From positions 1 to 23,604 of the IMG/VR virus record IMGVR_UViG_2529292985_000014: DNA of 23,604 nt, one strand, 5' to 3'. Origin of the DNA: a virus (lineage: Duplodnaviria > Heunggongvirae > Uroviricota > Caudoviricetes). Below the pieces are notes generated by a model. That model was not told the DNA's origin, did no database searches, and saw only the letters and a list, made by a program, of their open reading frames with translations. The position numbers and the translations under genes are program-made. Positions 111 through 23,604 of this stretch are shown here, one piece after another; the first letter of the stretch is position 1; every line of letters starts with the position of its first letter.

Positions 111-114
111 GCAA

Positions 115-611: not shown

Positions 612-625
612 AACGATTTCTCCGT

Positions 626-1120: not shown

Positions 1121-1144
1121 CGTTAGGTTTGTAGAATAAGAGAG

Positions 1145-1172: not shown

Positions 1173-1264
1173 CAGGTCGGATGTCCTTTTAAGGTAAAGC
1201 GTGACCTTAATCAACAAGGAGGGTAAATCGCATGGCATTTACCCAACCTGTTATTTTTAAAGGG

Positions 1265-1519: not shown

Positions 1520-1521
1520 GG

Positions 1522-1956
1522 CTACCCCATGATTCGATATTTCTCTACAGACTCGTCGTAACTTGTGTACACGTATGGCTCTGTATCATCGGCATAAGGT
1601 GCGACTTCCAGAGCATGAACAGGATTGTATACCGCGTCATTTTCCAGGCGATCGCTCGAATACAGATGCCCAGCCAAAACCGTAAGCGCCGGGCGACTCA
1701 TTTTGTAGATCTCTGCCACATCGCTATCTACAACTTGTCCAAATGATATGTCGCCGCGCTCCAGCAATAACGTTTTAAGCGCAGGCCACCACGGCCCATA
1801 AAGGTGATAAAGCTGTGGATCTCGTTTCAGCCTTTCCACCATGCCATTCAGATATGCATCCAGAAATGCCTCTTCACTCCTGCCATTGAGCGCCTGCGGC
1901 AAAATGTCCTCAAGGTAGGATTCCGTTGGTTTTACTGTGTCGATCAATGTTGTCAT
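1522..1956 (-). CDS. Hypothetical 144-aa acidic protein immediately downstream of darB (position I recall for P1 ulx)
   Basis: ATG start. Its AGAGG Shine-Dalgarno lies inside a hairpin CGGCCTC-TTTC-GAGGCCG (about 1963-1980) that sits between the darB stop and this start. Acidic, aromatic-rich sequence with no known motif. Confidence 0.45.
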   Translation of the reverse strand: MTTLIDTVKPTESYLEDILPQALNGRSEEAFLDAYLNGMVERLKRDPQLYHLYGPWWPALKTLLLERGDISFGQVVDSDVAEIYKMSRPALTVLAGHLYSSDRLENDAVYNPVHALEVAPYADDTEPYVYTSYDESVEKYRIMG

Positions 1957-1992
1957 TTTAATTCGGCCTCTTTCGAGGCCGCTCCATATCTG

Positions 1993-8910: not shown

Positions 8911-8985
8911 GGGGACGATACTACCGTCAAAATCACATACCCCCCATAGTTTGCCTGCTTATTAACCAATGACCGGAAAAAAAAT

Positions 8986-9471
8986 ATGGCAAACATTGAA
9001 CCTCGCTGGCTAATTGAAGCACGTAAGCACATTGGCCTGACTGAAATAAAAGGCGCTAAACACAACCCTGAAATCGTTCAGTTTTGGCGCGACATCAAGC
9101 GCGGCGGAATTAAAGACGATGAAACGCCGTGGTGCGCAGCATTTGTCGGTGCAATGCTGGAACGTGTAGGCATCCGCTCAACAAGATTTGAGTCGGCAAA
9201 ATCCTATCTGGATTGGGGCGCGAAATTAGATACACCGGCATACGGATGTATCGTTGTATTTACCCGCGTAGGCGGTGGGCACGTAGGCTTCGTTGTCGGA
9301 CGCCGCGCCAATGGCGATCTGCTTGTCCTGGGTGGGAACCAGGGGGATGCGGTTAATATTCGCGCATTCCCAACATCAAGAGTGTCTGGCTATCGCTGGC
9401 CTGCTGGCGAACCACGCAATACCGCTCTGTTACCAGTCGGAGACGCAGCAACCTCAACTAATGAGGCATGA
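8986..9471 (+). CDS. CHAP / NlpC-P60-like Cys-His hydrolase (TIGR02594-like); candidate peptidoglycan hydrolase
   Basis: 161-aa ORF with ATG start. Candidate catalytic Cys in TPWCAAFVGAM and His in GGGHVGFVVG, spaced as in CHAP-type amidases/peptidases (from memory). Only clearly coding plus-strand gene left of cin, divergent from darB. Confidence 0.55.
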   Translation: MANIEPRWLIEARKHIGLTEIKGAKHNPEIVQFWRDIKRGGIKDDETPWCAAFVGAMLERVGIRSTRFESAKSYLDWGAKLDTPAYGCIVVFTRVGGGHVGFVVGRRANGDLLVLGGNQGDAVNIRAFPTSRVSGYRWPAGEPRNTALLPVGDAATSTNEA

Positions 9472-9495
9472 AAAAAGCCCCGACCAGGCCGGGGC
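9471..9495. terminator. Hairpin terminator, functional mainly on the minus strand
   Basis: A-tract 9471-9476, stem GCCCCG (9477-9482) pairing with CGGGGC (9490-9495). The minus strand gets hairpin plus U6. The plus strand has no T-run after the hairpin. Confidence 0.5.
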
Positions 9496-9573
9496 ATCAC
9501 GCTTCAAGTCACGATCCAATCATTACCGACTATATCAGCCGTCGATAAATCAACTTCCCGGATCTGGAGTCCA

Positions 9574-9798
9574 TCAGTGTGCCTCCGCAATGCTGGGATT
9601 GGTAATATTGCGATACCAGGGATTAGTGTTTGGTTGTGGGGAAGTAGAGAAACGACCAGTAAGAACACCATACTGATCAGGGATCAGAGAACGGGCTTCT
9701 TTTTCGGTTGCGGCAATTGCGAAGTGATCGCAGTGTTTTTGCAGGGAGTGGAAACGCCAGATGAATTCTGGACGTGAGCAAGGATTGGCATTAACCAT
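9574..9798 (-). CDS. Hypothetical 74-aa protein
   Basis: ATG start with GAGG about 9 nt upstream. Minus-strand terminator about 80 nt downstream. No recognisable domain. Could be spurious. Confidence 0.3.
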   Translation of the reverse strand: MVNANPCSRPEFIWRFHSLQKHCDHFAIAATEKEARSLIPDQYGVLTGRFSTSPQPNTNPWYRNITNPSIAEAH

Positions 9799-10211
9799 AG
9801 TTACGGCCTCACTAACAGGTTTAACAACCTGCTACCCGCTGTCAAACAGGTGGCAGGACGTGACAGGGTTGACAGACTGGCGTTAGTGAAACCAGCAGGC
9901 CGAAGCCTCCCCATCACGCCCCACCATAATTCGGGCGTAACGCGGTTTACGGACACAAAAATACCGCAATATCGGAAATCTGCGGTTGTCCGCACTAACA
10001 TTCAGGCTGTCAAACCTGGTCGCAGAATTTGCTACGACGGCATGAATATAAGCCTGAAAACATGGAAGATCAACTAAAAATTTCAGCAATGGATGACTTC
10101 AGTCGATGATGCAGATCATACATTCCGATTTAGAAACAGAAAATTAATTTTCTAATACAAATCATCGAGCGAGCATTTGCCGATCATTGGGATGTTTTGT
10201 AGGCACACAGG

Positions 10212-11174
10212 TCATCCCCTAAATCCCGCAGGGATTGACCAATCCTCCCGGTCAAATTCAGACCGATAGCCACGCTGTTTCATCAGGTCAAAGGCTTCAC
10301 CAATGGTTGCACACCCCTGGGAGCCAGAATAATCCATTGAGAAATCCAGGGCACTGGATTGTTTAGGCTTATTCACTGCGGTAGCGGCACTACGTATCCA
10401 TGCAAATTTTTTTGCCAGCTTTTCAGCGGTACGATACAGAGCCTGCCGTTTTGCGTGCCCCTCGTCTGAACGACGCTTTGCAGCTCTCGCTTTTGCCGCC
10501 GCCAGGCAGCGGTTGGTATGTTCTTCCCTGATTACTGGTTTTTTATCCAGCACCCCATTATCCGCTTGAGAACTATCTGCTGGTGAAGCCTTTGGCTGAA
10601 CCGCGCATGATCTTTCTCTTCTTTTTGCTATAGAGTGACTCTTATTTTCTATTGGCTGTTCATTTTGAACATGGGGGGACTTGTTCAAAATGAACAGGGG
10701 GTTCCCAGTTTCAAAAAAATAACGAACCTTTGAAATCAACTGCTTAACCAGTTTTGTGGCGTTGGCAAATTTGATGCCCTGCTTACCCCCTATCTCCATT
10801 GCTGCATGAATGAAGTGGAGAAATTGTGTCGTAAACCGATATACGTTACACACCTGGGCATTGTTATTCGCTACCTGATGTTGCCTAACAAGCATTCCGC
10901 ACTTCGTCGCTTCAGCAAATGCCCGGCGTACAGTAGAAATACTGCGTCCTGTAATCTCGGACATATCAGCATATGAGCGACGGATCATGTATTCATCGGT
11001 AGCCCCTGCCAGGTTGGCGAACTCGGCAATAATAGCGCTATGTGAAGGGGAAAGAAGACCGCTATGACGAGCAAAAAAACTCAACTGATGACCTTTGATT
11101 TTTTTGTGGTATTCAGTGTTGTTTTTATACTCAGAAGTGTTGAAAGTTACTGAAACTGAATTTAAAATATTCAT
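10212..11174 (-). CDS. Hypothetical DNA-binding protein with HTH-like segment and basic central region
   Basis: 320-aa ORF with ATG start. HTH-like MSEITGRSISTVRRAFAEATKCGMLV. Lys/Arg-rich stretch AKARAAKRRSDEGHAKRQ. Contains the paired palindromes at 10658-10702 in its linker region. Confidence 0.5.
   Translation of the reverse strand: MNILNSVSVTFNTSEYKNNTEYHKKIKGHQLSFFARHSGLLSPSHSAIIAEFANLAGATDEYMIRRSYADMSEITGRSISTVRRAFAEATKCGMLVRQHQVANNNAQVCNVYRFTTQFLHFIHAAMEIGGKQGIKFANATKLVKQLISKVRYFFETGNPLFILNKSPHVQNEQPIENKSHSIAKRRERSCAVQPKASPADSSQADNGVLDKKPVIREEHTNRCLAAAKARAAKRRSDEGHAKRQALYRTAEKLAKKFAWIRSAATAVNKPKQSSALDFSMDYSGSQGCATIGEAFDLMKQRGYRSEFDREDWSIPAGFRG
10658..10702. repeat. Two adjacent palindromes TGTTCA-TTT-TGAACA and TGTTCA-AAAA-TGAACA, each followed by a G-run, inside coding sequence
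   Basis: Read directly: 10657-10705 is CTGTTCATTTTGAACATGGGGGGACTTGTTCAAAATGAACAGGGGGTT. It encodes ...NPLFILNKSPHVQNEQP... of the 320-aa protein. Confidence 0.6.
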
Positions 11175-11224
11175 CAGATAGTTCCGTGAAAAAATCTATC
11201 TACCGTATAAATCTATGCCAGTGG

Positions 11225-11234
11225 ATTTATACAC
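11225..11234 (-). promoter_or_regulatory. Candidate extended -10 element (GTGTATAAAT on the minus strand) for the 320-aa gene
   Basis: Lies between the terminator at 11236-11269 and the ATG at 11174. Weak; prediction by eye. Confidence 0.2.
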
Positions 11235-11235
11235 C

Positions 11236-11269
11236 AAAAAGCCGCTTCTCAGCGGCTTTTGCTTTTTTT
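11236..11269. terminator. Bidirectional rho-independent terminator
   Basis: A5 at 11236-11240, stem AAGCCGCT (11239-11246), loop TCTC, stem AGCGGCTT (11251-11258), then TTGCTTTTTTT. About 100 nt downstream of the 332-aa gene stop. Confidence 0.6.
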
Positions 11270-11328
11270 GGCAGTCGCTACCGGAGCAGTGACCGCGATC
11301 CTACTCGATCACATCGGACAGAATCAAC

Positions 11329-11346
11329 AGTGTATATAAATACACT
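11329..11346. promoter_or_regulatory. 18-bp AT-rich perfect palindrome AGTGTAT-ATAA-ATACACT (operator-like or -10-like)
   Basis: Read directly. Geometry GTGT-N8-ACAC resembles a LexA box (CTGT-N8-ACAG) but the outer conserved C/G positions are swapped. Sits between the 332-aa gene stop and the terminator. Confidence 0.3.
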
Positions 11347-11374
11347 ATGTTAGAAATTTAATTTCATTCTGCGG

Positions 11375-12373
11375 TTATGCCCGTCGTGAAACGAAGAGTA
11401 ATGGGGTAGTATTTTTGCTCTCCTTCGGCGATAACTCCGGCTCTTTCTTGCCTGATATCGGCAAGCCATAAGTCGCATTTGCCCCCAGTGATTCAAGCAT
11501 CGCAGCCACTATGCGAGCATCATCTTCAGACTGCATACGGCAGAGCGCCCGGCGCTGTTCTGCGCTAATAAAAACAGGCATTTCCTGGATAGCGTCACGC
11601 AAAATCCGGCGGCATTGCTTTGCATTTTCCCCCTGGCTTTCCATCATCGCTGTTTGAGTGCGCAGCTTATCTCGAAGCTGTATGTTTTCCACTTCAAGGA
11701 GCATCAATTCTGACTCAAGGGCTTCACGCTGTGCTGACTCGAAAATAGCCTGCTGATTCTTCATTGCTGAAAAGTGGTGAACAAGATCCGTAGCCGCGTT
11801 ATCGGTAAAACCTTGTTCGATAAGTGCCGCATGAATAGCCGCGTCGCGCTCTTCTGCTGATTCCAGCATCAGGCTTTTCTTGTCCAGACTGATATAGTTA
11901 GGCACAGTTACGTAATCAAAGCCGTGAAAAGACTTTACCAGGGATACAGATGAATCTGGGCCAGATGTAGCCCATGACCAACCACCCGCACCAGAATTAA
12001 TCATTCCCTGTACAATACGCCCGGTGTCTGTATCCAGTATTTCCTGCGTATGGGTAACAATGCCGTTGTCGTCAATCGAAATGTCGATAGTCCTGTTTGA
12101 TGGCACGTTCTCCAATACAACAGGTTTCCCATCAACCATCACAACAGAGACTTCCGGCAGGTTCAGGCTTTTCGTTTTGTTATAGTGCATCGCCCGGCGA
12201 CCATGACCGTAATAGCCATACATCTCACCAAGTGCGATACGCTCTTTTGTTTCTGGCGAGTTGAATGTGTCTCGCACCGACTGAATAACGTAATTTCGGT
12301 TGTTCTGCGGTGTGTGTTTGCGGATTTTCTCTACCAGGGAGAAGCGATCCGTAACAGTGTTCAGTGATTGCAT
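11375..12373 (-). CDS. Putative prohead protease / scaffold-like protein (possibly P1 Pro-like)
   Basis: 332-aa ORF: N-terminal globular part with Gly/Ser-rich GAGGWSWATSG, central coiled coil ALESELMLLEVENIQLRDKLRTQ, short C-terminal tail. The layout resembles prohead protease-scaffold fusions. Assignment is by architecture and neighbourhood only. Confidence 0.3.
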   Translation of the reverse strand: MQSLNTVTDRFSLVEKIRKHTPQNNRNYVIQSVRDTFNSPETKERIALGEMYGYYGHGRRAMHYNKTKSLNLPEVSVVMVDGKPVVLENVPSNRTIDISIDDNGIVTHTQEILDTDTGRIVQGMINSGAGGWSWATSGPDSSVSLVKSFHGFDYVTVPNYISLDKKSLMLESAEERDAAIHAALIEQGFTDNAATDLVHHFSAMKNQQAIFESAQREALESELMLLEVENIQLRDKLRTQTAMMESQGENAKQCRRILRDAIQEMPVFISAEQRRALCRMQSEDDARIVAAMLESLGANATYGLPISGKKEPELSPKESKNTTPLLFVSRRA

Positions 12374-12386
12374 TATTTCCCTCCGG

Positions 12387-14069
12387 TTAATTGCTCATCA
12401 CAAATTTTGCAAAGTTTATTAACTGTTCTGGCGTCCAGTTTTCCGGATCGTCACCGGACGACAACGGCGCGGATTCGTACATACCATGCTCGTTGTTTTG
12501 CTCTGATTCATTCGCCTTAAACTCTTTGATCATGGTGTTGAGAGTGTCATCGTCGATGTGCAACTGCTCGGTAAACAGATAACGCATAAACGCGTCACTA
12601 CCAGCCAGTTTCGGGTTGTTCTGGATCTGGTCCATAATTTGGGAGATGACAGCAACAAAGTTGGCGCGTGCATCCAGTTCCCGGTTTTCCTCTTCCTGAA
12701 TAGCAGTGTTCATTGAGTTGAATTGCACGTCATAAGGGCGGTTTTTTTCGGTGTAAACCTTGCCGTATTTATAAGCGAGGTGAATGTCCAGAAGCTGATA
12801 AATAGTTCGCTGGGCGGCCTGTCTGATCCAGTTCGCACGCAATGCAGCCTGGATAGCAGTTTGCTGCCAGCCGCCTTCTCCAAGCCCTCCGCTCATCTGA
12901 TCAGCCCAGCCAAGCATTGTTGCGTCAATGCCGAGGCTTGCAGCAAGCTGCCGGAGGTGAAACATAACGTCTTCGATACCACTGATATCTGCGGGTATGG
13001 ATTGCGTATCAATGGTGATGCCGTTCTTCCCGTCTCCCATAACAGGTATCAGATGGTTAAGCACAGTTGGAATAGCGTTGGCATTAATCGACCTTTGCGC
13101 CACCAGGTCACTATGACGCTTCAATGCCTGGCTGACGCCACGCGTATAGTTCGCCGCATTAACCGGGTCAAGTGTGTTCGTCGTAAGAGCAATCAGGCGG
13201 TCAATTTTGGCTGCATTATTTCGCGTTGATTTCAGCGCGGCGAGCGAAGCACATAAATTAAGGTAAGGTTCATAGCTGTATTCCAGGAATGAAGTTCCGT
13301 AATTCTGCGTCTCCATTAACGGCTTATCAGCTTGATCACTTAACAGTGAGTACCCTTTTGTGCCGTAGCTAACCGGAATAACTTTATGCTGTGGCGTCCA
13401 ATAGGGATTTTTCATGGAAACCAGATTCCACGGTTCGGTTATTACTCTGCGCAAACTATGCGTATCCAGGATGTAATCACCACTGAATCCAACCAGCTGG
13501 CTACCGCGATAAAATTCCTGGACGAAATGTGGCAGAGTGTAATAACTGGACTCAATGCCTGTTATCCCCCTGCCCTGTTCAGCATAAGGTCGGACATAAG
13601 ACACCCCAAAGATCGCCATGATCATGGCCCATGAAGGAAGTCCGTCATTAATCATCGCCCCCAAATCAGCGGTTAACTCTTCACATCTACTTACTGCCTC
13701 GGCATCGGAACCATCCTTTGGCGAAAGGATGAATGCCTGTCCGTTTTTTTTTGAAGGCGCAAGCGCATGTGCAATGTGAATGTTTAAAGCCGTCGAGATA
13801 GTCGGGCTTTTAGCCATCGTTTCCAGGATGTTGTACTTTTGCAGGCGCTCGCCGGGCAGTTCAGCGGATAAAGAAATTGAATCTGCCTCACTCGTCATGC
13901 CATCGCTATTGCTCCCCAGGATGCCTGGACGTAAAGCAGACAGGCCGGAACGAGCAACGACACTATGTCCGCTCGTAAAAACGACCGGATCGGCGGGCGT
14001 AACATCACCACCGTTGAAGGCTTTCTTCAATGCTGACAGAAAGCCTTTGTTTTTGTCTTTCGTTGCCAT
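12387..14069 (-). CDS. Putative portal-like virion structural protein
   Basis: 560-aa ORF with ATG start preceded by GGTGA. Size and acidic C-terminus fit a portal protein. It directly precedes the protease-like gene. No diagnostic motif verified. Confidence 0.3.
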   Translation of the reverse strand: MATKDKNKGFLSALKKAFNGGDVTPADPVVFTSGHSVVARSGLSALRPGILGSNSDGMTSEADSISLSAELPGERLQKYNILETMAKSPTISTALNIHIAHALAPSKKNGQAFILSPKDGSDAEAVSRCEELTADLGAMINDGLPSWAMIMAIFGVSYVRPYAEQGRGITGIESSYYTLPHFVQEFYRGSQLVGFSGDYILDTHSLRRVITEPWNLVSMKNPYWTPQHKVIPVSYGTKGYSLLSDQADKPLMETQNYGTSFLEYSYEPYLNLCASLAALKSTRNNAAKIDRLIALTTNTLDPVNAANYTRGVSQALKRHSDLVAQRSINANAIPTVLNHLIPVMGDGKNGITIDTQSIPADISGIEDVMFHLRQLAASLGIDATMLGWADQMSGGLGEGGWQQTAIQAALRANWIRQAAQRTIYQLLDIHLAYKYGKVYTEKNRPYDVQFNSMNTAIQEEENRELDARANFVAVISQIMDQIQNNPKLAGSDAFMRYLFTEQLHIDDDTLNTMIKEFKANESEQNNEHGMYESAPLSSGDDPENWTPEQLINFAKFVMSN

Positions 14070-14133
14070 GAATCACCGCAAATTGTTTCCAGTTTTGCGG
14101 CAGCATAATCAGTATGTGATTTCAGCGGTTGGT

Positions 14134-15531
14134 TTAGTTTTCTGTACGGCAATTATTTGGAACTGTAGAATTTTCAAACATAGCAAAGTTCAGACCTTTC
14201 CCTTCGCCAAATTCACCCTCAATTTCATCAGATACAGCAGACAAAATACTACGCAGATCAACATCGCCACCGCCGAACATATCGCCCAATGCCTGTTGTT
14301 TATGAGTCAGCTCGTCGTTGATTTTTTGCGCCATTTTTTTGAATGCTGCCCCCATACGCTTCGCACTGCGATTATTTGCTACGATGAATAGCGCCAATGC
14401 CTCAGCTTCCGGTGTACTGTCGCCGAATAACCCCCTTTGGGCGATCACTTCTTCAACGGCCTGACCGTTGTCTTTGGCTTCACGTACAAGATTAATTGCT
14501 TCCTGGAGTGCTGCTATCGCCTGTGTATCCAGGCCATTAACCTGCTCTATACCGTCCACTAAGCCTGTTACTGCGTCATGGTGAGCGTCGCCAGACAGCG
14601 ACTGCATTTGCGCAAAATCGCTGGCTGCCGTATTTAATGCGATCAGGATATTACGCATTTCCGGATCTGGCTCTTCCGACACCAGCCGAACAAGCCTTTC
14701 ATCCTTGTACGCTTTGGCAAAAATTGCATTCTGGATGCGATCGATAAGCTGTTTCGTGGGACGCCCATCGGCAGTAAGCAAGCCTGCCGTCGCTGTATCG
14801 CCAATTTCGCGCAAAAACGCACGAATAAACGCATCATTGGACCGCGCCAGCAGGTTTCCATCATCTGAAGGATTAAATAGCGCCATGACGCTCTCAGTGA
14901 GAAATTGCGCATCCGCATACGCTTTTTCACTTGCTGCCATCTCTTGCAGATCACTAATGTTTGAATCGCGGGCAAATTGAGCGCGGTCTACATCTGTGAG
15001 TCTTTCTCGCACCAGTACGGGCATAGACATTTGCGAAATTTCGTCAGGATTCAGACCAAACTCTTTCGCATGGTCGATCAGGTACTGGCGATACTCATCC
15101 GCCTGTCCTTGCTCATAGGCACGCCAGATACCCATACTCCTTCCGTTGCCGGATTCAACAACGTTGTCCGGACCAACTATCGGCGCTCCATGGCTGCTCA
15201 TACCGGAATCCGTTAATTGTGCCGGGCGTAAATCGGAGGCAATACGGTTAACCTGGAGTTTGCTGGATAGCCGGGTACGATCTCGTGGTTGGAGTTCTTC
15301 CGGGAAGGCCGGGTTAATCGTACCGTCAAGGTTGTTCGAAATGATTAGACTGCTGGCATCAACGACCTTAAAAGCCGTCTTTACCTCTGCGCCTTTGCTG
15401 GTGACTACGTAGCTACTTCGCCCCATGCGTGTTTCTTTCCTCTCTAATGAAGAAACCAGAGCAATGACGCTGTTAATATCTGCGGCCTCGGAAAGCGCAG
15501 AAGTAACTGATTTGTTCAAAATACACTCCAA
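14134..15531 (-). CDS. Hypothetical alpha-helical protein, possibly a virion internal protein (downstream of the DdrA-like gene)
   Basis: 465-aa ORF. Track start is TTG 15531. An alternative TTG at 15519-15517 has GGAG 6 nt upstream. No motif recognised. Confidence 0.35.
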   Translation of the reverse strand: MECILNKSVTSALSEAADINSVIALVSSLERKETRMGRSSYVVTSKGAEVKTAFKVVDASSLIISNNLDGTINPAFPEELQPRDRTRLSSKLQVNRIASDLRPAQLTDSGMSSHGAPIVGPDNVVESGNGRSMGIWRAYEQGQADEYRQYLIDHAKEFGLNPDEISQMSMPVLVRERLTDVDRAQFARDSNISDLQEMAASEKAYADAQFLTESVMALFNPSDDGNLLARSNDAFIRAFLREIGDTATAGLLTADGRPTKQLIDRIQNAIFAKAYKDERLVRLVSEEPDPEMRNILIALNTAASDFAQMQSLSGDAHHDAVTGLVDGIEQVNGLDTQAIAALQEAINLVREAKDNGQAVEEVIAQRGLFGDSTPEAEALALFIVANNRSAKRMGAAFKKMAQKINDELTHKQQALGDMFGGGDVDLRSILSAVSDEIEGEFGEGKGLNFAMFENSTVPNNCRTEN

Positions 15532-15588
15532 CTATAGAGAAAGCTGTGAGTGTAAAAAGAGTGTGATTTATGTGAGAACAGAGAAGTG

Positions 15589-15611
15589 AAAGGGGGATTC
15601 CACCCCCTTTT
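15589..15611. terminator. GC hairpin AAAGGGGG-ATTCCA-CCCCCTTT between the DdrA-like and 465-aa genes
   Basis: Read directly. Followed by TTTTG on the plus strand and TTTC on the minus strand. A TATAGT -10-like hexamer lies just downstream on the minus strand. Could be an attenuator or partial terminator. Confidence 0.3.
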
Positions 15612-15613
15612 GA

Positions 15614-15982
15614 TTACCCGGCATAACCGTTGGCTTTCACCCAGCTTATGGTCTGTTCTTTAGCCTGCTCCAACGTAAGGAACTCGCCAACATAGTTTGA
15701 GATCCCACGCAGCGCATCAATAAATTCCATTTGTGTGGACTTTGTGAACACACCGCCCAGGAAGTCAGTCACTATCTTAGGGACTTCATCTACAACAGGA
15801 TCAGTCTGTTGTTGCGGTTCCGCTGCCGGTTGCGCGGCAGTCCCCAGGCCCAATTTCAGCATCACATCAACAATCTGCTTACCAATGGTGACGCGTTGCA
15901 ATACTGGCGCAGTTTTCTGCGCCTGCATTAGATCTGATAGCTCTTTACCTAATTTCAGGCGGTCTAAAACAGAGATGGTCAT
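15614..15982 (-). CDS. DdrA-like small protein encoded directly downstream of the DarA-like gene
   Basis: 122-aa ORF. Its ATG overlaps the upstream stop (TAATG), indicating coupling. Assignment by position only. Confidence 0.4.
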   Translation of the reverse strand: MTISVLDRLKLGKELSDLMQAQKTAPVLQRVTIGKQIVDVMLKLGLGTAAQPAAEPQQQTDPVVDEVPKIVTDFLGGVFTKSTQMEFIDALRGISNYVGEFLTLEQAKEQTISWVKANGYAG

Positions 15983-17907
15983 TAAGCACCTCCCTGCTGA
16001 ATTTCAGCCAGAATGTTGATCAGGTAGTCAACTGCTGCACCCACAGTGGCTTCGTTCTCGTCGTATCGACCTGCACTGATTAGAGCATTTGCTGCTTCCT
16101 GTACATGATCAAGTTCAGTACTGATGACCGTCAGATCGCGGGATGTAAACTGCTCCGGCACGGATTTCAGGTACTCCAGCGCTTTATCTGCCTCCTGATC
16201 AGCTTCACTTGCTGATTCACCCGCTTCTTCTGGTTCCGGCTCCTGTTCTGGTGCTGGTTGTGGTTGTGATTCTGGCTCAACCACATGCTCTGTTTTTACT
16301 TCGCTTGAATAATTTTGAAGGGCGTTATACACGTCCATAATGAAAAGGTTCTCCCCATCACCAAGTGGATACGCCACGTTTGGAAACGCTTTGCGGAAAA
16401 GAATTTTCACTTGCGCCTTGAATGTTTTCAGGTCACTGCCAAACAGGTCCACATAGCCATCAATATGTTTAGACATGCTGGACACAACCAATTGGCCTGC
16501 AAAATCTTTCAGCTCATCTTCATCAGGAAGATAGAGCAACTCGTACTGGCTGACTTCTTTATCTGTCAGTTTACGGTCATACGTAATGATACCGTGACGA
16601 GCATATCCGTAATACTGATCAGCCTGGTCAGGACGATCAAGCACGGCTTTATTTCCATCCGGCACAGCACCAACACCAGCCGGGCGAGATTGAAGTGCAT
16701 AGTGGTATTTACCTACATCTTGGCTCTCTGGTTGTGATACTGGGTTCGTCTCGGGGGCTGTCTGTGGTGGTTCGGAGTCTTCCTGCTGGCCTGGTAACAC
16801 ATCAACTTTATATTTATCTGCGTTATGCTCTCGGTAGGCTTTAAGTAATTTGGTTGCAGCATCTGCCAAACTGCCTCCTTTGACAGCACTGGCATCAATA
16901 CTGAATTTACCTTCAGGTGCTACTATCGTAACGAAATTGTCACTGCCGGACGTGACATAATTAACTTCAGCGCCATTATCCAGCACTGTTTTTCCGTCAA
17001 TGGCAAGATTATGTTTTACATGTCGCAGCTGGTCACTAAACGCTCGCTCCTTCGTTTTTTCACCTTTAGCAGACAACAATTTATCGCGTTTTTCTTGTAA
17101 TTCCTCGTTGATGGCTTTCTGGGCATCAAGTTTTTTTTGCATCTCCGTAAGAGCAGCACGCTTTTCAGTCAGCCCACGTTGCGCAACGTCCACCTGATCA
17201 ATTGTTATTGACCGTTCTTCTGCCAGTTTATCTGCTTCATTGAGATAACTCTCAATATCTGCCTTCATTTTGTCCTGGCGCTCTTTTGCTTTCTTAAACT
17301 TTTCGCTGTTACGCTCAATCAAATTAGATAGCGCCTGGCATACCTGGCTTAAAGAAACATCTCTCCCACCAATCGGGGCGACAACGTGAGTTACGTTACG
17401 CTTATTAAGTAAAAACTGAAATGCAACAAGCTCGTCGTTACTCTTTATTTTTGCCCCGTCAGCTGTTGGAGAGTGGAAAATTATGCTTGTACTCTGCCCG
17501 TCAGTAAGCGGTATCTGCGCGGTCAAAACAGGGATATTAGCTACCCGACGTACACGACCGATAATCGCACCACCAATACAATTACGTCCATTTTCATCGG
17601 TCCCGGCTTCATCAGTCCCTGCCATAATATTCGTACCATTCAGGCCACGATTCAGCGCACGGACGAAAGCTCGCATTGTTTGAGCTAACCGAATTCTGGT
17701 TGTAGTTATGGACTCAAACATAGCTTCGTCAGACACAACCAGAATTTCATTGCCCATATAGGCAAGCTCAATATCTTCTAAGGTCGCCGCCTCAAAAATC
17801 AGGTCATCTTCGCTTAATTCTTCTGAAGACCAGCGACCTGGCATATAGCCGGGGATCGTATCAGCAAAAGTAGACTGAATATTAATTCGTAAAGGATTGT
17901 TAATCAT
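15982..17907 (-). CDS. darA: DarA-like internal head / anti-restriction protein
   Basis: Track ORF is 654 aa from 17946. ATG at 17907 has GGAGG 6 nt upstream and overlaps the upstream stop (ATGATTAA), giving 641 aa. Long coiled coil (KFKKAKERQDKMKADIESYLNEADKLAEE...) and acidic Pro/Glu-rich low-complexity segment (EPESQPQPAPEQEPEPEE). Sits after holin, LydB-like and Hdf-like genes, as I recall for the P1 darA operon. Confidence 0.5.
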   Translation of the reverse strand: MINNPLRINIQSTFADTIPGYMPGRWSSEELSEDDLIFEAATLEDIELAYMGNEILVVSDEAMFESITTTRIRLAQTMRAFVRALNRGLNGTNIMAGTDEAGTDENGRNCIGGAIIGRVRRVANIPVLTAQIPLTDGQSTSIIFHSPTADGAKIKSNDELVAFQFLLNKRNVTHVVAPIGGRDVSLSQVCQALSNLIERNSEKFKKAKERQDKMKADIESYLNEADKLAEERSITIDQVDVAQRGLTEKRAALTEMQKKLDAQKAINEELQEKRDKLLSAKGEKTKERAFSDQLRHVKHNLAIDGKTVLDNGAEVNYVTSGSDNFVTIVAPEGKFSIDASAVKGGSLADAATKLLKAYREHNADKYKVDVLPGQQEDSEPPQTAPETNPVSQPESQDVGKYHYALQSRPAGVGAVPDGNKAVLDRPDQADQYYGYARHGIITYDRKLTDKEVSQYELLYLPDEDELKDFAGQLVVSSMSKHIDGYVDLFGSDLKTFKAQVKILFRKAFPNVAYPLGDGENLFIMDVYNALQNYSSEVKTEHVVEPESQPQPAPEQEPEPEEAGESASEADQEADKALEYLKSVPEQFTSRDLTVISTELDHVQEAANALISAGRYDENEATVGAAVDYLINILAEIQQGGA

Positions 17908-18520
17908 GCTCATCCTCCAGGCGCGCGATTTCTTCTTTAAGAGCACGTGTCTTAGCTACTTCCTGAGACAAGGCAGCTTTAACGTTACCCGTATCTTGCA
18001 TTACTTTGTCTGACTTGCTCTGGAGTTTAGACAGTTTGTCGTTAGCATTAGCGATATCTTCACGGAGTGCATCACGTGATTCTTTCGCTTCAGCTAATTT
18101 CTGAGCGTTGGATTTAACTCCCTGCCGCTTCTTATTTTCGTCATCAATATTTTTTGCTGCACGAGCAAGTTTTCGAGCTAATGACTTCTGGAAAGAAGTT
18201 GCTCCGCGATTAAATAAAGCCGCAAGAGATTGCCCCAAAGCCGACATTGTTTTTACTGGCTTGAACGGTACTGTTTTACCATTCAGTTTGATCCCAGATA
18301 TATCACCGGTATCGTTAACCTGAACTTCCATTGTCTGTTCATCAAGACCAATAAGGGTAAACGTGCGCGTCATGATCCCATCTTTCTTCCTGCCATTACT
18401 TGCAGGGATCACCCTCGCTATCTTGTAACCACCTTTGCTGATTTCTTTGACGAGTTTTGCCAGCCCCTTTTCGTTTAACTCATCATAATTAAGAAGAACA
18501 TAATTATTCTTATTTGACAT
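17900..18520 (-). CDS. hdf: Hdf-like protein (homolog of a DarA fragment)
   Basis: Likely start ATG 18520 with AAGGAGG 5 nt upstream (the track GTG 18535 is less likely). Segment SALGQSLAALFNRGATSFQKS resembles DarA-like LSQVCQALSNLIERNSEKF, and both are followed by a coiled coil. Confidence 0.45.
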   Translation of the reverse strand: MSNKNNYVLLNYDELNEKGLAKLVKEISKGGYKIARVIPASNGRKKDGIMTRTFTLIGLDEQTMEVQVNDTGDISGIKLNGKTVPFKPVKTMSALGQSLAALFNRGATSFQKSLARKLARAAKNIDDENKKRQGVKSNAQKLAEAKESRDALREDIANANDKLSKLQSKSDKVMQDTGNVKAALSQEVAKTRALKEEIARLEDEHD

Positions 18521-18956
18521 CCCAGCCTCCTTCACGCTTTTCGATCGTAAACTGGCGCTCTATGCAGTCATTGATAGGGAAAATGCGATAAAGCGGATTC
18601 AGTCGGCAGTTACCGTTAGTCAATGTGACTTTCAGATCCCACTTCGTTGGCTCAAGATATTTCGTATCGATGAGCAAATACTCTTCTCTCTCACCGCGTT
18701 TTGAGGCGTCAACTGGTCGTGTTTTCCCTGAAATAACCACAGATGGATTTTTCAGGTCTTGCAACCAATATTCGATTTGAGCATTGCTGACCCAGCTTCG
18801 CTTAACACGTAGCGAAACAGGAAATGCTATAGCAGATTCTTTCACTACAGCGTCACCAATACTCAAAATCTCAACACTCTTGCGACGAAAAATGAAACGG
18901 TCAATGATGGCAACAAATGCCATGATAAAAATGAAATAATTCCCAAAGTTACCCAT
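18510..18956 (-). CDS. LydB-like membrane-anchored protein (candidate antiholin or lysis regulator)
   Basis: 148-aa ORF. ATG overlaps the holin stop (TAATG). N-terminal hydrophobic segment NYFIFIMAFVAIIDRFIF followed by a soluble domain. Confidence 0.45.
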   Translation of the reverse strand: MGNFGNYFIFIMAFVAIIDRFIFRRKSVEILSIGDAVVKESAIAFPVSLRVKRSWVSNAQIEYWLQDLKNPSVVISGKTRPVDASKRGEREEYLLIDTKYLEPTKWDLKVTLTNGNCRLNPLYRIFPINDCIERQFTIEKREGGWDVK

Positions 18957-19282
18957 TATTTCTCTCCACCTTTTCCCCCATTCGCTATTACGCTTAAGAG
19001 ATTCAAGACGTTACTAGCTCTGGACTTCAAGCCCTGTAAAATTTCTCTTCCGTTGTTACTGGCAATCAGAACAACGCAGAAAATGATACCTTCAGGCCAT
19101 TCCTGGCTAACCGCCACCCCATACCCCGCAAGCCCGGCTGTTACCGCAGTAAACAATTCACTCGCAAGATTGAGCAGGGACGCAGAAATGCGCCCGTCTC
19201 TAACTCCGAGAAGGAATACGCCGGTTCCACTTAGTAGGGATGTTATGACTACTACAGCCAGATTTTCATAATCTGCAAACAT
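18956..19282 (-). CDS. lydA: Holin (LydA-like), three predicted transmembrane segments
   Basis: 108-aa ORF with strong SD GGAGGGG before the ATG. Hydrophobic stretches LAVVVITSLLSGTGVFLLGV, LFTAVTAGLAGYGVAV and IIFCVVLIAS. Basic C-terminus. First gene of the operon. Confidence 0.55.
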   Translation of the reverse strand: MFADYENLAVVVITSLLSGTGVFLLGVRDGRISASLLNLASELFTAVTAGLAGYGVAVSQEWPEGIIFCVVLIASNNGREILQGLKSRASNVLNLLSVIANGGKGGEK

Positions 19283-19294
19283 ACCCCTCCAGAA

Positions 19295-19325
19295 ATAACA
19301 TCTAATGCGCCACTAACTTAGTCAG
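19295..19325 (-). promoter_or_regulatory. Candidate late-type promoter for the lydA-darA operon: palindrome ACTAAGTTAGT upstream of a -10-like TTAGAT
   Basis: On the minus strand the 11-bp palindrome (plus 19311-19321) is centred about 11-12 bp upstream of TTAGAT (plus 19299-19304). There is no -35 hexamer. This matches my recollection that P1 late promoters carry an inverted repeat centred near -22 instead of a -35. Confidence 0.3.
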
Positions 19326-19387
19326 TTTGTTATTTCCTTACAGGACATCTTCTAAAATCTCCCTCCTTAACATACAAGGGGGAACAT

Positions 19388-19948
19388 ATGCTTATTGGAT
19401 ACATTCGCGTATCAACTAATGACCAAAACACAGCTTTACAACGAAACGCCCTTGAAAGCGCAGGATGTGAGCTAATTTTTGAGGATAAGGCGAGCGGCAA
19501 AAAGGCTGAACGCCCTGGGTTAAAAAAGGTTCTCCGTATGCTTTCCAGAGGTGACACCCTGGTCGTATGGAAGTTAGATCGTCTTGGGCGCAGTATGCGT
19601 CACTTGGTTGTGCTGGTGGAAGAGCTTCGTGACATAGGCATTAACTTCCGGAGTCTCACTGACTCCATCGACACCAGTACACCAATGGGGCGCTTTTTCT
19701 TTCACGTAATGGGGGCGCTGGCAGAAATGGAACGTGAGCTTATCGTTGAACGTACACGCGCTGGACTTGATGCGGCTCGCGCAGAAGGTCGTATAGGTGG
19801 GCGTCGGCCTAAATACCAAGAAGAAACATGGCAGCAAATGCGGCGATTGCTGGAGAAGGGAATCCCCCGTAAGCAGGTTGCAATCATCTATGATGTGGCT
19901 GTTTCCACGCTTTATAAGAAGTTTCCGGCGTCATCATTTCAATCCTAA
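19388..19948 (+). CDS. cin: Cin/Gin/Hin-family serine DNA invertase
   Basis: 186-aa ORF. N-terminal MLIGYIRVSTNDQN with the catalytic Ser. Conserved VVWKLDRLGRS and FHVMGALAEMERELI. C-terminal HTH GIPRKQVAIIYDVAVSTLYKK. SD AAGGGGGAA before the ATG. Confidence 0.85.
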   Translation: MLIGYIRVSTNDQNTALQRNALESAGCELIFEDKASGKKAERPGLKKVLRMLSRGDTLVVWKLDRLGRSMRHLVVLVEELRDIGINFRSLTDSIDTSTPMGRFFFHVMGALAEMERELIVERTRAGLDAARAEGRIGGRRPKYQEETWQQMRRLLEKGIPRKQVAIIYDVAVSTLYKKFPASSFQS

Positions 19949-19965
19949 ACCTTGGTTTAAGAGAA
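19940..19965. other. cix-like recombination crossover site
   Basis: CAATCCTAAACC-TT-GGTTTAAGAGAA: two imperfect 12-bp inverted half-sites around a 2-bp core at 19952-19953. About 9 of 12 matches per half-site to the gix/hix-type half-site TTATCCAAAACC as I recall it. Overlaps the cin stop codon (19946-19948). Confidence 0.5.
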
Positions 19966-19995
19966 CTCGGTACCAGCGGTGAAAAGATCCCCCTG

Positions 19996-22857
19996 TTGAG
20001 CACGGCTAACACATGGAGTTCACGCCAGACTTTCAACGGCGGGATCACCGGGGCGCTGACAGGGAACGCCGACACCGCGACGAAACTTGCGACGGCAAGA
20101 AACATCAACGGTGTTAAATTTGATGGTTCTGTGGACATTTCGATACCAACAATTACGTCCAGAGGGCGTGTTACTGCGCTCACCGGTACAACACAAGGTG
20201 CTGCTACTGGATTGCAAATGTATGAGGCGTACAACAACGGCTATCCTTCTGTTTACGGGAATGTGCTTCATCTTAAGGGCGCAACGGCAGTTGGTGAAGG
20301 TGAGTTGTTCATAGGTTGGAGCGGTACAAGTGGCGCTCATGCACCTGTACATGTACGTTCGCGACGAGATACTGATACAGCCAGTTGGTCAGAGTGGGCG
20401 CAGGTCTACACATCGAAGGATTCCATCCCTGGTGTAAATACCACGGGCAACCAGAACACAACCGGAAACGCGGCGTCTGCAACGAAATTACAAACGGCAA
20501 GAACTATTGGTGGTGTTTCATTTAATGGCACCGCAAACATCGACCTGCCGGGCGTGAATAAAACAGGCAATCAGAGCACTACCGGCAATGCAGCTACAGC
20601 CACAAAACTGCAAACAGCACGCACCATTAATGGGGTTTCATTTGACGGAACGGCTAATATTTCTCTGTCACCGGCAAATATTGGTTGCCCGGCATCTCCT
20701 ACTGGTTGGCTTGAAACAGGTGATAATGGAGCATCAATAACAACAGAGCAATTAGTGACTCTGCTACGAGATAATGGTGCTTTTAATGCAAAGGTATGGA
20801 TAGCGCGTTGTGCCTGGGCGTATGCAAATAGTGCATCCATACCAGACAGCGAAACAGGATGCGGCATTATTCCACTGGCGGGTGCTGTGATAGAAGTATT
20901 CAGCAATAATACCAACAATTACACCATTCGAATAACAACGGCAACGACGACAAGTGTATCTGGCGCACTCACTAATGCTGAATTTATCTATGTGTCTAAT
21001 GGCACAAGTTATTCACCAGGATGGCGCAGAGCGTATAACACTAAAAACAAACCTACTGCGGCTGATGTCGGAGCTTTACCACTATCTGGAGGAGCGTTAA
21101 CTGGCGGATTAACTGCTGCTGGCGAGATTATTTCCAAATCGGCGAATGGTCTGCGCATTGCCTATGGCAACTATGGATTCTTTATCCGAAACGATGGTTC
21201 AAACACATATTTCATGTTGACCGATTCGGGTAACAGCCTGGGAACCTATAATAGGTTAAGGCCGCTTATCATTAACAATGCCAATGGTACTGTTACGATC
21301 GGTAATGGACTCAATGTTACTGGCGGCATCAATGGTAGTTTGAACGGTAATGCTTCAACAGCTACGAAGTTGCAAACTGCTAGAAAAATAAGCGGCGTGT
21401 CTTTTGATGGTTCTGCTGATATAACACTAACAGCTGAAAATGTATCTGCTTTTGCTCGACGCGCTACTGGAACTTATGACGATACTAGTGGTGCGGTCCC
21501 GTGGAATGCCGAATCAGGTGCGTATAATGTTACACGCTCCGGGGCTTCTTATATCGTTGCAAATTTTTATACAGGCGTAGGTAGTTGTCGGACTCTCCAA
21601 ATCCGAGCGCATTATAAAAATGGTGGATTGTATTACCGTTCATCACGTGATGGCTATGGGTTCGAAGAGGACTGGACTCAGATATATACTAAAAAAGACA
21701 GCATCCCTGGTGTGAATACAACTGGTAATCAGAACACTACTGGCAATGCTGCAACTGCAACAAAACTGCAAACAGCACGCACAATAGGCGGAGTGTCATT
21801 CGATGGTAGTGCCAATATCGACCTGCCAGGTGTGAATAAAACAGGTAATCAGAACACTACCGGTAATGCAGCGACAGCGACCAAGTTGCAGACAGCATGT
21901 ACTATCAACGGCGTCTCGTTTGATGGTTCTAAAGATATTGAACTTAACCCACGGTCTATAGGCACGATCAACTCCACAACAATGTCTTTTAGTGGTGGTG
22001 CTGGATGGTTCAAACTGGCAACTGTAACCATGCCACAGGCCAGTTCCGTGGTTTACATAAGCCTGATTGGTGGTGCAGGGTTTAACGTTGGCTCCCCGCA
22101 GCAAGCAGGCATCTCTGAGCTGGTTCTGCGTGCAGGAAATGGAAATCCAAAAGGTATTACTGGTGCATTATGGCGACGGACCTCGGTTGGATTTACTAAT
22201 TTTGCATGGGTGAATACATCCGGTGATACCTATGATGTTTATGTTGAAATAGGTAATTACGCCACAGGTGTTAATATTCAGTGGGATTATACCAGTAACG
22301 CCAGCGTAACGATTCATACATCACCAACTTATACAGCGAATAAACCAACAGGCCTGACAGATGGAACTGTATATGTAATTTACAGTTCGCACATTAAACC
22401 GACTGCTGCTGAGGTTGGGGCGTTGTCATTATCTGGCGGTCAATTGAATGGTGCACTGGGCATCGGAACATCCAGTGCTCTTGGTGGTAACTCGATTGTT
22501 TTGGGTGATAATGACACGGGATTTAAACAAAATGGCGACGGGTATCTGGATGTTTATGCTAATAACGTCCATGTTATGCGCTTTGTCTCCGGCAGTATTC
22601 AAAGTAATAAAACCATAAATATTACAGGTCGTGTTAATCCCTCAGATTACGGTAACTTTGATTCCCGTTATGTGAAAGATGTTCGCCTGGGTACGCGTGT
22701 TGTTCAATTGATGGCGCGTGGTGGTCGTTATGAAAAAGCCGGACACGCAATTACCGGATTAAGAATCATTGGTGAAGTAGATGGCGATGATGAAGCCATC
22801 TTCAGGCCAATACAAAAATACATCAATGGCACATGGTATAACGTCGCACAGGTGTAA
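19996..22857 (+). CDS. Tail-fibre variable cassette (Sv-type C-terminal part of tail fibre protein S), currently not fused to a constant part
   Basis: 953-aa ORF that the track starts at TTG with no SD. The same frame is open upstream to 19918, across the cix-like site. At least six copies of the phage fibre repeat GNA-x-TATKLQTAR-x-I-x-GV-x-FDG. Confidence 0.75.
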   Translation: MSTANTWSSRQTFNGGITGALTGNADTATKLATARNINGVKFDGSVDISIPTITSRGRVTALTGTTQGAATGLQMYEAYNNGYPSVYGNVLHLKGATAVGEGELFIGWSGTSGAHAPVHVRSRRDTDTASWSEWAQVYTSKDSIPGVNTTGNQNTTGNAASATKLQTARTIGGVSFNGTANIDLPGVNKTGNQSTTGNAATATKLQTARTINGVSFDGTANISLSPANIGCPASPTGWLETGDNGASITTEQLVTLLRDNGAFNAKVWIARCAWAYANSASIPDSETGCGIIPLAGAVIEVFSNNTNNYTIRITTATTTSVSGALTNAEFIYVSNGTSYSPGWRRAYNTKNKPTAADVGALPLSGGALTGGLTAAGEIISKSANGLRIAYGNYGFFIRNDGSNTYFMLTDSGNSLGTYNRLRPLIINNANGTVTIGNGLNVTGGINGSLNGNASTATKLQTARKISGVSFDGSADITLTAENVSAFARRATGTYDDTSGAVPWNAESGAYNVTRSGASYIVANFYTGVGSCRTLQIRAHYKNGGLYYRSSRDGYGFEEDWTQIYTKKDSIPGVNTTGNQNTTGNAATATKLQTARTIGGVSFDGSANIDLPGVNKTGNQNTTGNAATATKLQTACTINGVSFDGSKDIELNPRSIGTINSTTMSFSGGAGWFKLATVTMPQASSVVYISLIGGAGFNVGSPQQAGISELVLRAGNGNPKGITGALWRRTSVGFTNFAWVNTSGDTYDVYVEIGNYATGVNIQWDYTSNASVTIHTSPTYTANKPTGLTDGTVYVIYSSHIKPTAAEVGALSLSGGQLNGALGIGTSSALGGNSIVLGDNDTGFKQNGDGYLDVYANNVHVMRFVSGSIQSNKTINITGRVNPSDYGNFDSRYVKDVRLGTRVVQLMARGGRYEKAGHAITGLRIIGEVDGDDEAIFRPIQKYINGTWYNVAQV
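20403..20690 (+). repeat. Internal tail-fibre module, copy 1
   Basis: Encodes YTSKDSIPGVNTTGNQNTTGNAASATKLQTARTIGGVSFNGTANIDLPGVNKTGNQSTTGNAATATKLQTARTINGVSFDGTANISL. Near-identical at protein level to copy 2, diverged at synonymous positions. Confidence 0.7.
21684..21965 (+). repeat. Internal tail-fibre module, copy 2
   Basis: Encodes YTKKDSIPGVNTTGNQNTTGNAATATKLQTARTIGGVSFDGSANIDLPGVNKTGNQNTTGNAATATKLQTACTINGVSFDGSKDIEL. Lies 1281 bp downstream of copy 1, in frame. Confidence 0.7.
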
Positions 22858-23388
22858 ATGATGCAGCATTTAAAAAATATTAAGTCTGGAAATCCTAAAA
22901 CAAAAGAACAATATCAGCTAACAAAGAATTTTGATGTTATCTGGTTATGGTCCGAAGACGGAAAAAACTGGTATGAGGAAGTGAAAAACTTTCAGCCAGA
23001 CACAATAAAGATTGTTTACGATGCAAATAATATTATTGTCGCCATCACCAAAGATGCCTCCACGCTTAACCCTGAAGGTTATAGCGTCGTTGAGGTTCCA
23101 GATATTACAGCCAACCGCCGCGCTGATGATTCCGGTAAGTGGATGTTTAGGGACGGAGCTGTGGTTAAACGGATTTATACGGCAGACGAGCAACAACAAC
23201 AGGCCGAATCACAAAAGGCCGCATTGCTTTCCGAAGCTGAATCAGTCATCCAGCCGCTGGAACGCGCTGTCAGGCTGAATATGGCAACAGACGAGGAGCG
23301 CACACGACTGGAAGCATGGGAACGCTACAGCGTTCTTGTAAGCCGCGTGGATACGGCAAAGCCAGAATGGCCACAAAAACCTGAGTAA
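22858..23388 (+). CDS. Tail fibre assembly protein (U / Tfa-type chaperone)
   Basis: 176-aa ORF. ATG abuts the tail-fibre stop (TAAATG). C-terminus ...[27 protein letters not shown] is typical of Tfa-family proteins. Confidence 0.7.
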
Positions 23389-23415
23389 AAATAAGGCCCG
23401 ATAACGGGCCTTTTC
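23389..23415. terminator. Bidirectional terminator between convergent tail-fibre assembly genes
   Basis: A-tract, stem GGCCCG (23395-23400), loop ATAA, stem CGGGCC (23405-23410), then T-rich run. Fills the gap between the two convergent stops at 23388 and 23416. Confidence 0.6.
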
Positions 23416-23604
23416 TCATTCTGGTTGTTCGGGAAACGTTACTGGCAGGATGGAGGTATCTGTAGATTCTACTTTCTGCGCATATAGCATCCACGCGGTT
23501 AATTTCTGTTTATTCTCATCGGAAATGATGCCCAGCCGTAGCTGTGAGTCCCACAGTTGGGTTTTATCCCTGACAAGTTGCAATAGGCTTTGCTTTTCAT
23601 TTTC
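23416..23604 (-). CDS. Partial second tail fibre assembly gene (U'-type), 3' end only; 5' end lies beyond the window
   Basis: Reverse-complement translation of 23416-23604 gives 63 codons with no stop: ENEKQSLLQLVRDKTQLWDSQLRLGIISDENKQKLTAWMLYAQKVESTDTSILPVTFPEQPE. It ends with the same W-x-Y...V...P-E-x-PE pattern as U. Not in the ORF track because the start is outside the window. Confidence 0.65.
   Translation of the reverse strand, partial: ENEKQSLLQLVRDKTQLWDSQLRLGIISDENKQKLTAWMLYAQKVESTDTSILPVTFPEQPE

Follow-up and report, generated by a model that had tools for sequence, protein, structure and literature searches.

What raises a question at this locus is a long tail-fibre reading frame, devoid of an ATG start, that lies directly behind a gene for a DNA invertase: is it a gene in its own right or the silent half of a switch? 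The stretch analysed here (hereafter the window, 23,604 nt) is the complete draft contig AERM01000058.1 (assembly GCA_000193895.2). In silico comparison indicated, with a probability of about 0.93, that a D6/P1-like plasmid prophage of E. coli is present and that the region studied is the end nearest cin of its invertible C segment, which is of the P1 type.

The Cin DNA-inversion system of phage P1 has been in the literature since the 1980s, and the flip of its C segment exchanges the tail-fibre tip, with a resulting change of host range. By means of such a switch, P1-like phages alternate two receptor-binding fibre tips. The switch formed here by cixL and Cin is thus of an already known kind and not a new one, and the scientific gain is small, since one more copy is added of a textbook case of phase variation. 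The backbone (window 1-10200) was 87.9% identical to phage D6 (MF356679) over 100% of its length, and the gene order darA, lydB, lydA, cin, Sv', U', U is shared with plasmid NZ_CP076307, with 98% identity over 9.8 kb. The features of the region are provided in Table 1.

Table 1. Features of the cin-proximal region, in window coordinates.
Feature	Position	Strand	Remarks
cin, serine DNA invertase	19388..19948	+	186 aa, 561 nt; TAA stop at 19946-19948
Recombinational (Fis-dependent) enhancer, putative	19406..19477		By homology; in the 5' part of cin
cixL crossover site	19940..19965	+	26 bp, CAATCCTAAACC TT GGTTTAAGAGAA; strands exchanged at the TT core, 19952-19953
Inner inverted repeat of the segment	19953..20089		At both segment ends in relatives
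Sv' cassette (silent, start-less), encoding an alternative C-terminal part of tail-fibre protein S	19953..22857	+	967 codons plus stop
Quasi-cix site	20136..20161		CATTTCGATACC AA CAATTACGTCCA; in the opposite orientation to cixL
U', tail-fibre assembly chaperone of the silent cassette	22858..23388	+	Pfam Caudo_TAP, 2.2e-37
Terminator-like hairpin, bidirectional	23393..23412		Between the convergent chaperone genes; consensus match only
U, convergent chaperone gene, 3' end	23416..23604	-	Gene of the expressed cassette; truncated where the contig stops

The invertase gene, its crossover site and a candidate enhancer

The product of cin has the size and architecture of a serine invertase close to Cin, with an N-terminal resolvase catalytic domain (Pfam Resolvase, PF00239, 3.1e-50) and a C-terminal HTH domain (HTH_7, PF02796, 2.8e-18). 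It is identical to P1 Cin at 183/186 residues (98%) and to the protein of NZ_CP076307 at 185/186, and its best solved relative is Gin (3UJ3, 4e-88). The catalytic Ser9 is intact within the motif VSTNDQ. The differences from P1 Cin are V6I, E12D and R83I, the last at a position where P1, P7 and Gin have arginine. A sequencing error at residue 83 was ruled out, because 263 blocks of the collection contain exactly this Cin protein; the allele is therefore widespread, and in loci L013 and L014 it adjoins complete segments.

The site that the earlier note had described as cix-like, over the stop of cin, turned out to be the cixL of P1 itself. It comprises two imperfect inverted half-sites of 12 bp, which agree at 8/12 positions when read towards the 2-bp TT core, and it is identical (26/26, flanks included) in P1, P7, D6-like plasmids and seven other loci. 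Identity with P1 extends 30 bp to the left and 34 bp to the right of cixL, and the cin stop codon falls within the site in both. The annotations of the P1 record can be transferred directly: its cixL (32215..32234) corresponds to window 19943-19962, its crossover point (32224/32225) to 19952/19953 and its Cin-binding region (32211..32241) to 19939-19969. The P7 and D6 records carry corresponding annotations of the system. The 26-mer occurs a single time in the window, and no cixL match with up to three mismatches arose in 100 shuffles.

An enhancer had been expected in the 5' part of cin, by analogy, and left unplaced. Homology now puts the candidate at the position given in Table 1, where 68/72 nt (94%) are identical to the P1 enhancer, annotated in AF234172 (31678..31749) as 'enhancer of Cin-mediated C-segment inversion'. 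In a crude Fis-consensus scan the best pair of predicted sites with 48-bp spacing was 19410-19424 plus 19458-19472, both within this stretch, and an equally high score was reached at only 10 of 23541 window positions. Inversion at this locus is probably Fis-dependent.

The start-less cassette and its chaperone gene

The Sv' cassette has homologues in P1 and P7, namely their Sv'/Sv features. It showed Pfam matches to Gp34_trimer (1.4e-32) and gp37_C (2e-06), contains a 78-nt fibre repeat six times and is a mosaic whose pieces are 87-99% identical to different plasmids. The reading frame is indeed open from 19918 across the crossover site, as had been stated (frame 1; preceding TAA at 19915-19917, stop at 22855-22857), although this carries no weight alone, because the 11 open codons left of the crossover are not unusual by chance ((61/64)^11, about 0.6). 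As far as sequence comparison goes, it is homology and not the open frame that decides how the cassette is to be read. The description of a 953-aa ORF with neither ATG nor Shine-Dalgarno sequence at its start was right about the missing signals; its extent had to be corrected, as the cassette proper starts at the crossover and has 967 full codons (19954-22854).

The first codons of the cassette, LGLRELGTSGEKIPLLSTANTW, correspond to the residues found directly after Sc in four S proteins, those of P1, P7 and two plasmids. When the Sc of a relative was joined in silico to the cassette by exchange at the TT core, an unbroken ORF of 1372 aa resulted, with the junction peptide VIQYLGLRELGTSGEK, which is the same in four S proteins. 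These junction residues and the fused ORF bear out the proposal that the cassette is built for fusion to a constant 5' part. Its own chaperone gene, U', follows directly and is 95% identical at DNA level to the U' of P7. In the annotations of P1 and P7 the cassette beside cin is called Sv' and is expressed only once the segment has been inverted, in agreement with the suggestion that the copy next to cin is the silent one.

Beyond U', the terminator-like hairpin has an 8-bp stem with six GC pairs and T-runs on both strands. The remnant of the convergent gene U is called as a 62-aa partial Caudo_TAP product in L007 (13421-13609, equivalent to window 23416-23604), while in L002 the gene is complete and encodes 177 aa. 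A strong repeat was rejected as the reason for the contig end at 23604, given that in L002 the two chaperone genes share only about 71% identity. Draft contigs of such plasmids typically break within the segment or at its edge.

The partner site and inversion in relatives

Since the contig stops 3652 bp into the invertible segment, cixR and Sc are outside the view. A second full copy of cix was not found in the window (26-mer, up to three mismatches), and searches with the 12-bp core (up to one mismatch) and with TAAACCNNGGTTTA (up to three mismatches) returned only cixL or chance-level matches there; neither were there inverted repeats within 19300-23604. In relatives, cixR has the sequence TTATCCAATACC TT GGTTTAAGAGAA and lies inverted inside S (partner-type site in inverted form, TTATCCAATACCTTGGTTTAAGAGAA). 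Exactly one inverted cixR was present in each of the nine loci that reach far enough (P1, P7, D6, L005, L006, L010, L011, L013 and L014), at distances of 4007-6494 bp. In NZ_CP076307 and NZ_CP066033, window 19942-20089 has a match (95.9%) at either end of the segment, the one near cin and the one near Sc, the repeats at the segment ends being 636 bp long in P1, 717 bp in L005 and 152 bp in L006.

That segments of this kind are inverted can be seen in plasmids NZ_CP159151 and NZ_CP123261 (L010 and L011), which are 99.93% identical and differ by a 5.7-kb inversion bounded exactly by both sites. Moreover, the N-terminal 750 nt of the cassette (at least 97% identity) adjoin cin in five complete plasmids, and in 15 others the match lies within an annotated tail-fibre gene and begins exactly at window 19942. 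One and the same cassette is thus seen in both positions among complete plasmids.

On this basis, Cin would bind cixL in the window and an inverted cixR that would lie inside S on another contig, and Fis on the enhancer would promote synapsis of the two sites. Cleavage by Cin at the central TT and strand exchange would then flip the entire segment. In the present orientation Sv' and U' would be silent, because they are without promoter, start codon and N-terminal part. After inversion Sv' would be in frame with Sc and transcribed together with U' from the late tail-fibre promoter, and the other cassette would move to the silent position.

The best surviving alternative is that the segment is a defunct remnant in this strain, through loss or disruption of cixR, of Sc or of the other cassette, which would leave it frozen and the cin-side cassette permanently silent. 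The contig does end inside the segment, with the partner out of view, and P1-like plasmids with a truncated cin or an incomplete C segment are known, parts of the segment having been lost in some of them (PMC6906374). We nevertheless consider this reading improbable. The cin gene, cixL and the candidate enhancer are all intact, the silent cassette is still open over its whole length, the chaperone gene U' is intact and followed by the convergent U as in complete relatives, and the nearest backbone relatives all have complete segments. We infer that cixR and Sc are still present in this strain, and inversion of the segment would be expected to affect host range here too.

A quasi-site and the possibility of further states

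The quasi-cix site within the cassette resembles cix in its left half only (ATACC, as in cixR). In contig L016, which encodes the same Cin protein, window 19953-20148 is inverted in place, which amounts to a mini-inversion of 196 bp. Both junctions are exactly those predicted if cixL and the quasi-site were recombined at their 2-bp cores (junction sequence, AAACCTTGGTATCGAAATG). An assembly artefact was ruled out, because the junctions have only 5 nt (TTGGT) in common with the parental sequences, and the two reciprocal junctions both occur exactly as predicted. The L016 junction was not found in complete E. coli genomes and the mini-inversion is therefore rare. Together with the long mosaic cassette, this natural event in a relative is a minor addition to the knowledge of Cin substrates.

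A switch with more than two states, whether through additional cassettes and sites in the segment's unassembled half, on the pattern of p15B Min, or through regular use of the quasi-site, appears very unlikely. If it were true, a regular 196-bp mini-inversion would reversibly uncouple the silent cassette from cixL and lock the fibre type. The window covers 3.65 kb of the segment, and a relaxed search for extra cix sites gave 9 matches there, against 9.5 expected; the multiplicity of more than two sites that marks the p15B Min type was not seen in this part, where a single weak quasi-site is indicated by the relative. A two-state C segment remains the preferred reading.

Annotation of the cassette

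Translation of the 953-aa ORF as a free-standing gene, from TTG 19996 on transcripts reading through from cin, is hardly credible: automatic and manual annotations of relatives do put a CDS at or near this place (D6 orf32; PGAP 'beta strand repeat-containing protein') and the interval between cin and the ORF holds no terminator-like site, but the TTG is without a Shine-Dalgarno sequence (upstream sequence, GAAAAGATCCCCCTG), the first in-frame ATG (20218) lies 74 codons further in, the residues from the crossover on lie inside S, as its continuation, in four relatives, and the product would be without Sc, the P1 annotation having Sv' expressed solely in the inverted state. A functional promoter and start for the cassette, which would speak against a silent copy, were also looked for, and no promoter-like site was found from cin through the first 500 nt of the ORF. 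The practical use of the result is in annotation and assembly. Records should name the cassette Sv' and mark it as a silent gene segment; a 'tail fibre protein' of its own, starting at the TTG or internally, should not be called.

Comparison with known systems

Mu Gin/gix, Salmonella Hin/hix, e14 Pin and p15B Min/mix form, with Cin/cix, the family of Fis-dependent DNA invertases. The region resembles them in its serine invertase (about 190 aa), in the 26-bp size of the site and its 2-bp core and in a putative enhancer near the 5' end of the invertase gene, and it shares with Mu and p15B the alternative tail-fibre C-termini accompanied by chaperones (PMC3798978). However, the site sequences of the Mu, Salmonella, e14 and p15B systems differ from cix. 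Salmonella hin lies within its own invertible segment, which controls a promoter, and p15B Min acts on six sites and many cassettes, unlike the 3.65 kb seen here, with no extra site above chance.

Among the phages with the same sites, P7 (AF503408) has an identical cixL, cin is 95% identical at DNA level and U' with the fibre tip likewise 95%; it differs in an Sv' of 1345 nt, in having Ua and Ub as chaperones of the other cassette and in the presence of lydC. D6 (MF356679) agrees in the gene order around cin, also without lydC, and its cixL and cixR are annotated by homology, whereas its S' cassette has about 520 codons in a segment of 4265 bp, so that the cassette described here is nearly twice as long. 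With regard to P1, lydC stands between lydA and cin there and is absent here, Sv' has 519 codons (32225..33782) and not 967 and is a different mosaic, and the segment measures 4256 bp compared with 5.7-6.5 kb in the closest relatives of the window. The two are alike in other respects, with the same 26-bp cixL enclosing the cin stop, closely similar Cin (98%) and enhancer (94%) sequences, the order lydA, cin, cixL, Sv', U' and convergent U, and the same junction peptide.

The Crossover Site and the Cin Recombinase

The earlier note had placed a cix-like site over the stop codon of cin, and a 26-bp site with the TAA inside it was found there. Read inwards to the central TT, its two 12-bp half-sites share 8 of 12 positions. 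The site is present as a single copy in the window, and none of 100 shuffles matched it at three or fewer mismatches. The site, the 30 bp on its left and the 34 bp on its right are all identical to phage P1, in whose record the elements of the inversion switch are annotated at the corresponding positions; the same annotations are also present in the P7 and D6 records.

Features of the inversion region, with the positions annotated for phage P1
Feature	Window	Strand	P1 record	Remarks
cin	19388-19948	+		186 codons, TAA stop 19946-19948
Putative enhancer of inversion	19406-19477		31678..31749	5' part of cin; by homology, 68/72 nt identical to P1 enhancer
cixL, 26 bp	19940-19965			CAATCCTAAACC TT GGTTTAAGAGAA; encloses cin stop
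cixL, P1 annotation	19943-19962		32215..32234
Crossover, P1 annotation	19952/19953		32224/32225
Cin-binding region, P1 annotation	19939-19969		32211..32241
Quasi-site	20136-20161			CATTTCGATACC AA CAATTACGTCCA; inverted relative to cixL, only one good half-site
U'	22858-23388			Caudo_TAP chaperone
Bidirectional terminator-like hairpin	23393-23412			after U'

Cin, in which Resolvase and HTH_7 domains were detected and whose closest solved relative is Gin, is identical to P1 Cin at 183 of 186 residues (changes V6I, E12D and R83I). Codon 83 (19634-19636) is ATA, encoding Ile, while P1, P7, the E. coli plasmid NZ_CP076307 and Mu Gin have Arg. The Ile83 protein is common in exactly this form (263 blocks of the collection list it) and adjoins complete C segments, the stretch between cixL and its inverted partner cixR that Cin flips; it is a natural allele. 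The enhancer expected inside the 5' part of cin could be placed there by homology to P1. In a crude scan with the Fis consensus, the best pair of sites with 48-bp spacing was 19410-19424 and 19458-19472, within the homologous stretch. This spacing of Fis sites comes from work on the Hin enhancer.

Partner Site and Inversion in Related Loci

A second cix site was sought in the window, which takes in no more than 3652 bp of the C segment, and was not found, as would also be the case in a frozen remnant without a partner. Such a remnant is very unlikely in view of the relatives. Each related locus of sufficient length had exactly one inverted partner, TTATCCAATACC TT GGTTTAAGAGAA, inside the tail-fibre gene S, at a distance of 4007 bp (P7), 4256 bp (P1), 4265 bp (D6), 5729 bp (the plasmid pair NZ_CP159151 and NZ_CP123261), 6185 bp (L013), 6191 bp (L006), 6477 bp (L005) or 6494 bp (L014), and the Cin proteins of L013 and L014 are exactly that of the window. 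NZ_CP159151 and NZ_CP123261 (143.6 kb) share 99.93% identity over the compared region and differ by an inverted segment that ends exactly at the two sites. The first 750 nt of the window's cassette adjoin cin in five complete plasmids (at least 97% identity); in 15 other plasmids the match starts exactly at window position 19942, in an annotated tail-fibre gene, a context that was confirmed for one of the 15.

In a related contig with an identical Cin (L016; GCA_047915335.1, JBLRGT010000016.1), the 196-bp stretch 19953-20148 of the window is inverted in place (L016 8565-8762). Both junctions are exactly as predicted for a reciprocal exchange at the cores of cixL (TT) and the quasi-site (AA). 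None of the complete E. coli genomes searched had the junction, and the mini-inversion is therefore rare. For P1 Cin, quasi-cix sites have been known since the 1980s, and the L016 event behaves alike.

The Tail-Fibre Cassette

As the earlier note had reported, frame 1 is free of stops from 19918 on and leads into a start-less tail-fibre ORF; it closes at 22857. The open frame through the site carries no weight, because only 11 of its codons precede the crossover, no more than chance would readily give. The 953-aa ORF begins at TTG 19996 and its first in-frame ATG is at 20218. Independent translation from this TTG, which no Shine-Dalgarno sequence precedes, is extremely improbable. From cin through the ORF's first 500 nt, no promoter-like site was found. 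The visible part of the segment does not support a Min-like system with multiple sites.

The proposal that the cassette is built for fusion to the constant 5' part of S (Sc) agrees with its junction. The peptide encoded from the crossover on is LGLRELGTSGEKIPLLSTANTW, and the same residues come after Sc in the S proteins of P1, P7, NZ_CP076307 and NZ_CP066033 (...AVIQY/LGLRELG...). When Sc from NZ_CP076307 was fused in silico at the central TT to window 19953-22857, one ORF of 1372 aa with no internal stop resulted. In public annotations the silent start-less cassette appears either as a separate CDS that starts internally or at a TTG, or split into a pseudogene fragment and a CDS (L005 9744-12470; L009 3693-5213; L010, one of the plasmid pair, 9639-11336). 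All these calls are probably artefacts to which the gene-segment architecture gives rise in annotation.

This alternative C-terminal cassette (Sv') has 967 codons, whereas Sv' of P1 is about half as long. Gp34_trimer and gp37_C domains were found in it, together with six copies of a 78-nt (26-aa) fibre repeat, GNAxxATKLQTARxIxGVxFDGxxxI (20061-21938), and a 257-nt block (20392-20648) duplicated at 21670-21926 with 75% identity. From its sequence, it appears to consist of two fibre modules, one after the other. Against every plasmid examined the cassette is a mosaic, with pieces 87-99% identical to different plasmids.

Proposed Mechanism

All the visible parts match P1 by sequence, the frame is compatible with Sc, and the partner and natural inversion are found in relatives; the reading of the earlier note is thereby supported. 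Cin dimers would bind cixL and cixR, and Fis would bind the enhancer within cin. After synapsis, Cin would cut at the central dinucleotide, and rotation of its subunits would swap the halves and so invert the segment. As captured here, Sv' and its chaperone gene U' adjoin cin with no promoter, start or Sc and would be silent; inversion would join them to Sc and place them under the late tail-fibre promoter, giving a different receptor-binding tip. We infer a complete switch in this strain, its Fis dependence and an effect on host range.

Downstream of the hairpin lies the 3' end of the convergent chaperone gene U (about 71% identical to U' in a relative), cut off by the end of the contig; the window is the entire draft contig AERM01000058.1 of assembly GCA_000193895.2. 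No strong repeat explaining the break inside U was found. Contigs of several relatives likewise stop within the C segment or at its edge, and one (L002) begins exactly at ACCTTGG of cix.

Comparison with Known Systems

Window 10300-20089 is 98% identical to NZ_CP076307, and phage D6 matches positions 1-10200 along their entire length with 88% identity; these matches mark the element, by sequence, as a D6/P1-like plasmid prophage. Its genes follow in the order repL, portal, ddrB, darA, lydB, lydA, cin. P1 and P7 have lydC between lydA and cin, whereas the window, like D6, does not. The 105-bp lydA-cin gap (19283-19387) contains the palindrome ACTAACTTAGT (19312-19322), a candidate -22 box of a late promoter for the minus-strand lydA operon, as in P1 late promoters. 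An ORF of 2305 aa (1993-8910, minus strand) lies at the place of the D6 'defense against restriction'/DEAD-box helicase-family gene (darB-like).

The site and the start-less cassette of the window are P1 cixL and the silent Sv' cassette, already known and here rediscovered. The fibre tip, U' and the 3' end of U (21970-23604) are 93% identical to Yersinia phage vB_YpM_39 (OR545053.1, 4001-7573). This phage has the same convergent cassette layout, with its own hin-type invertase adjoining it, and the whole inversion module appears to have been exchanged between unrelated phages.
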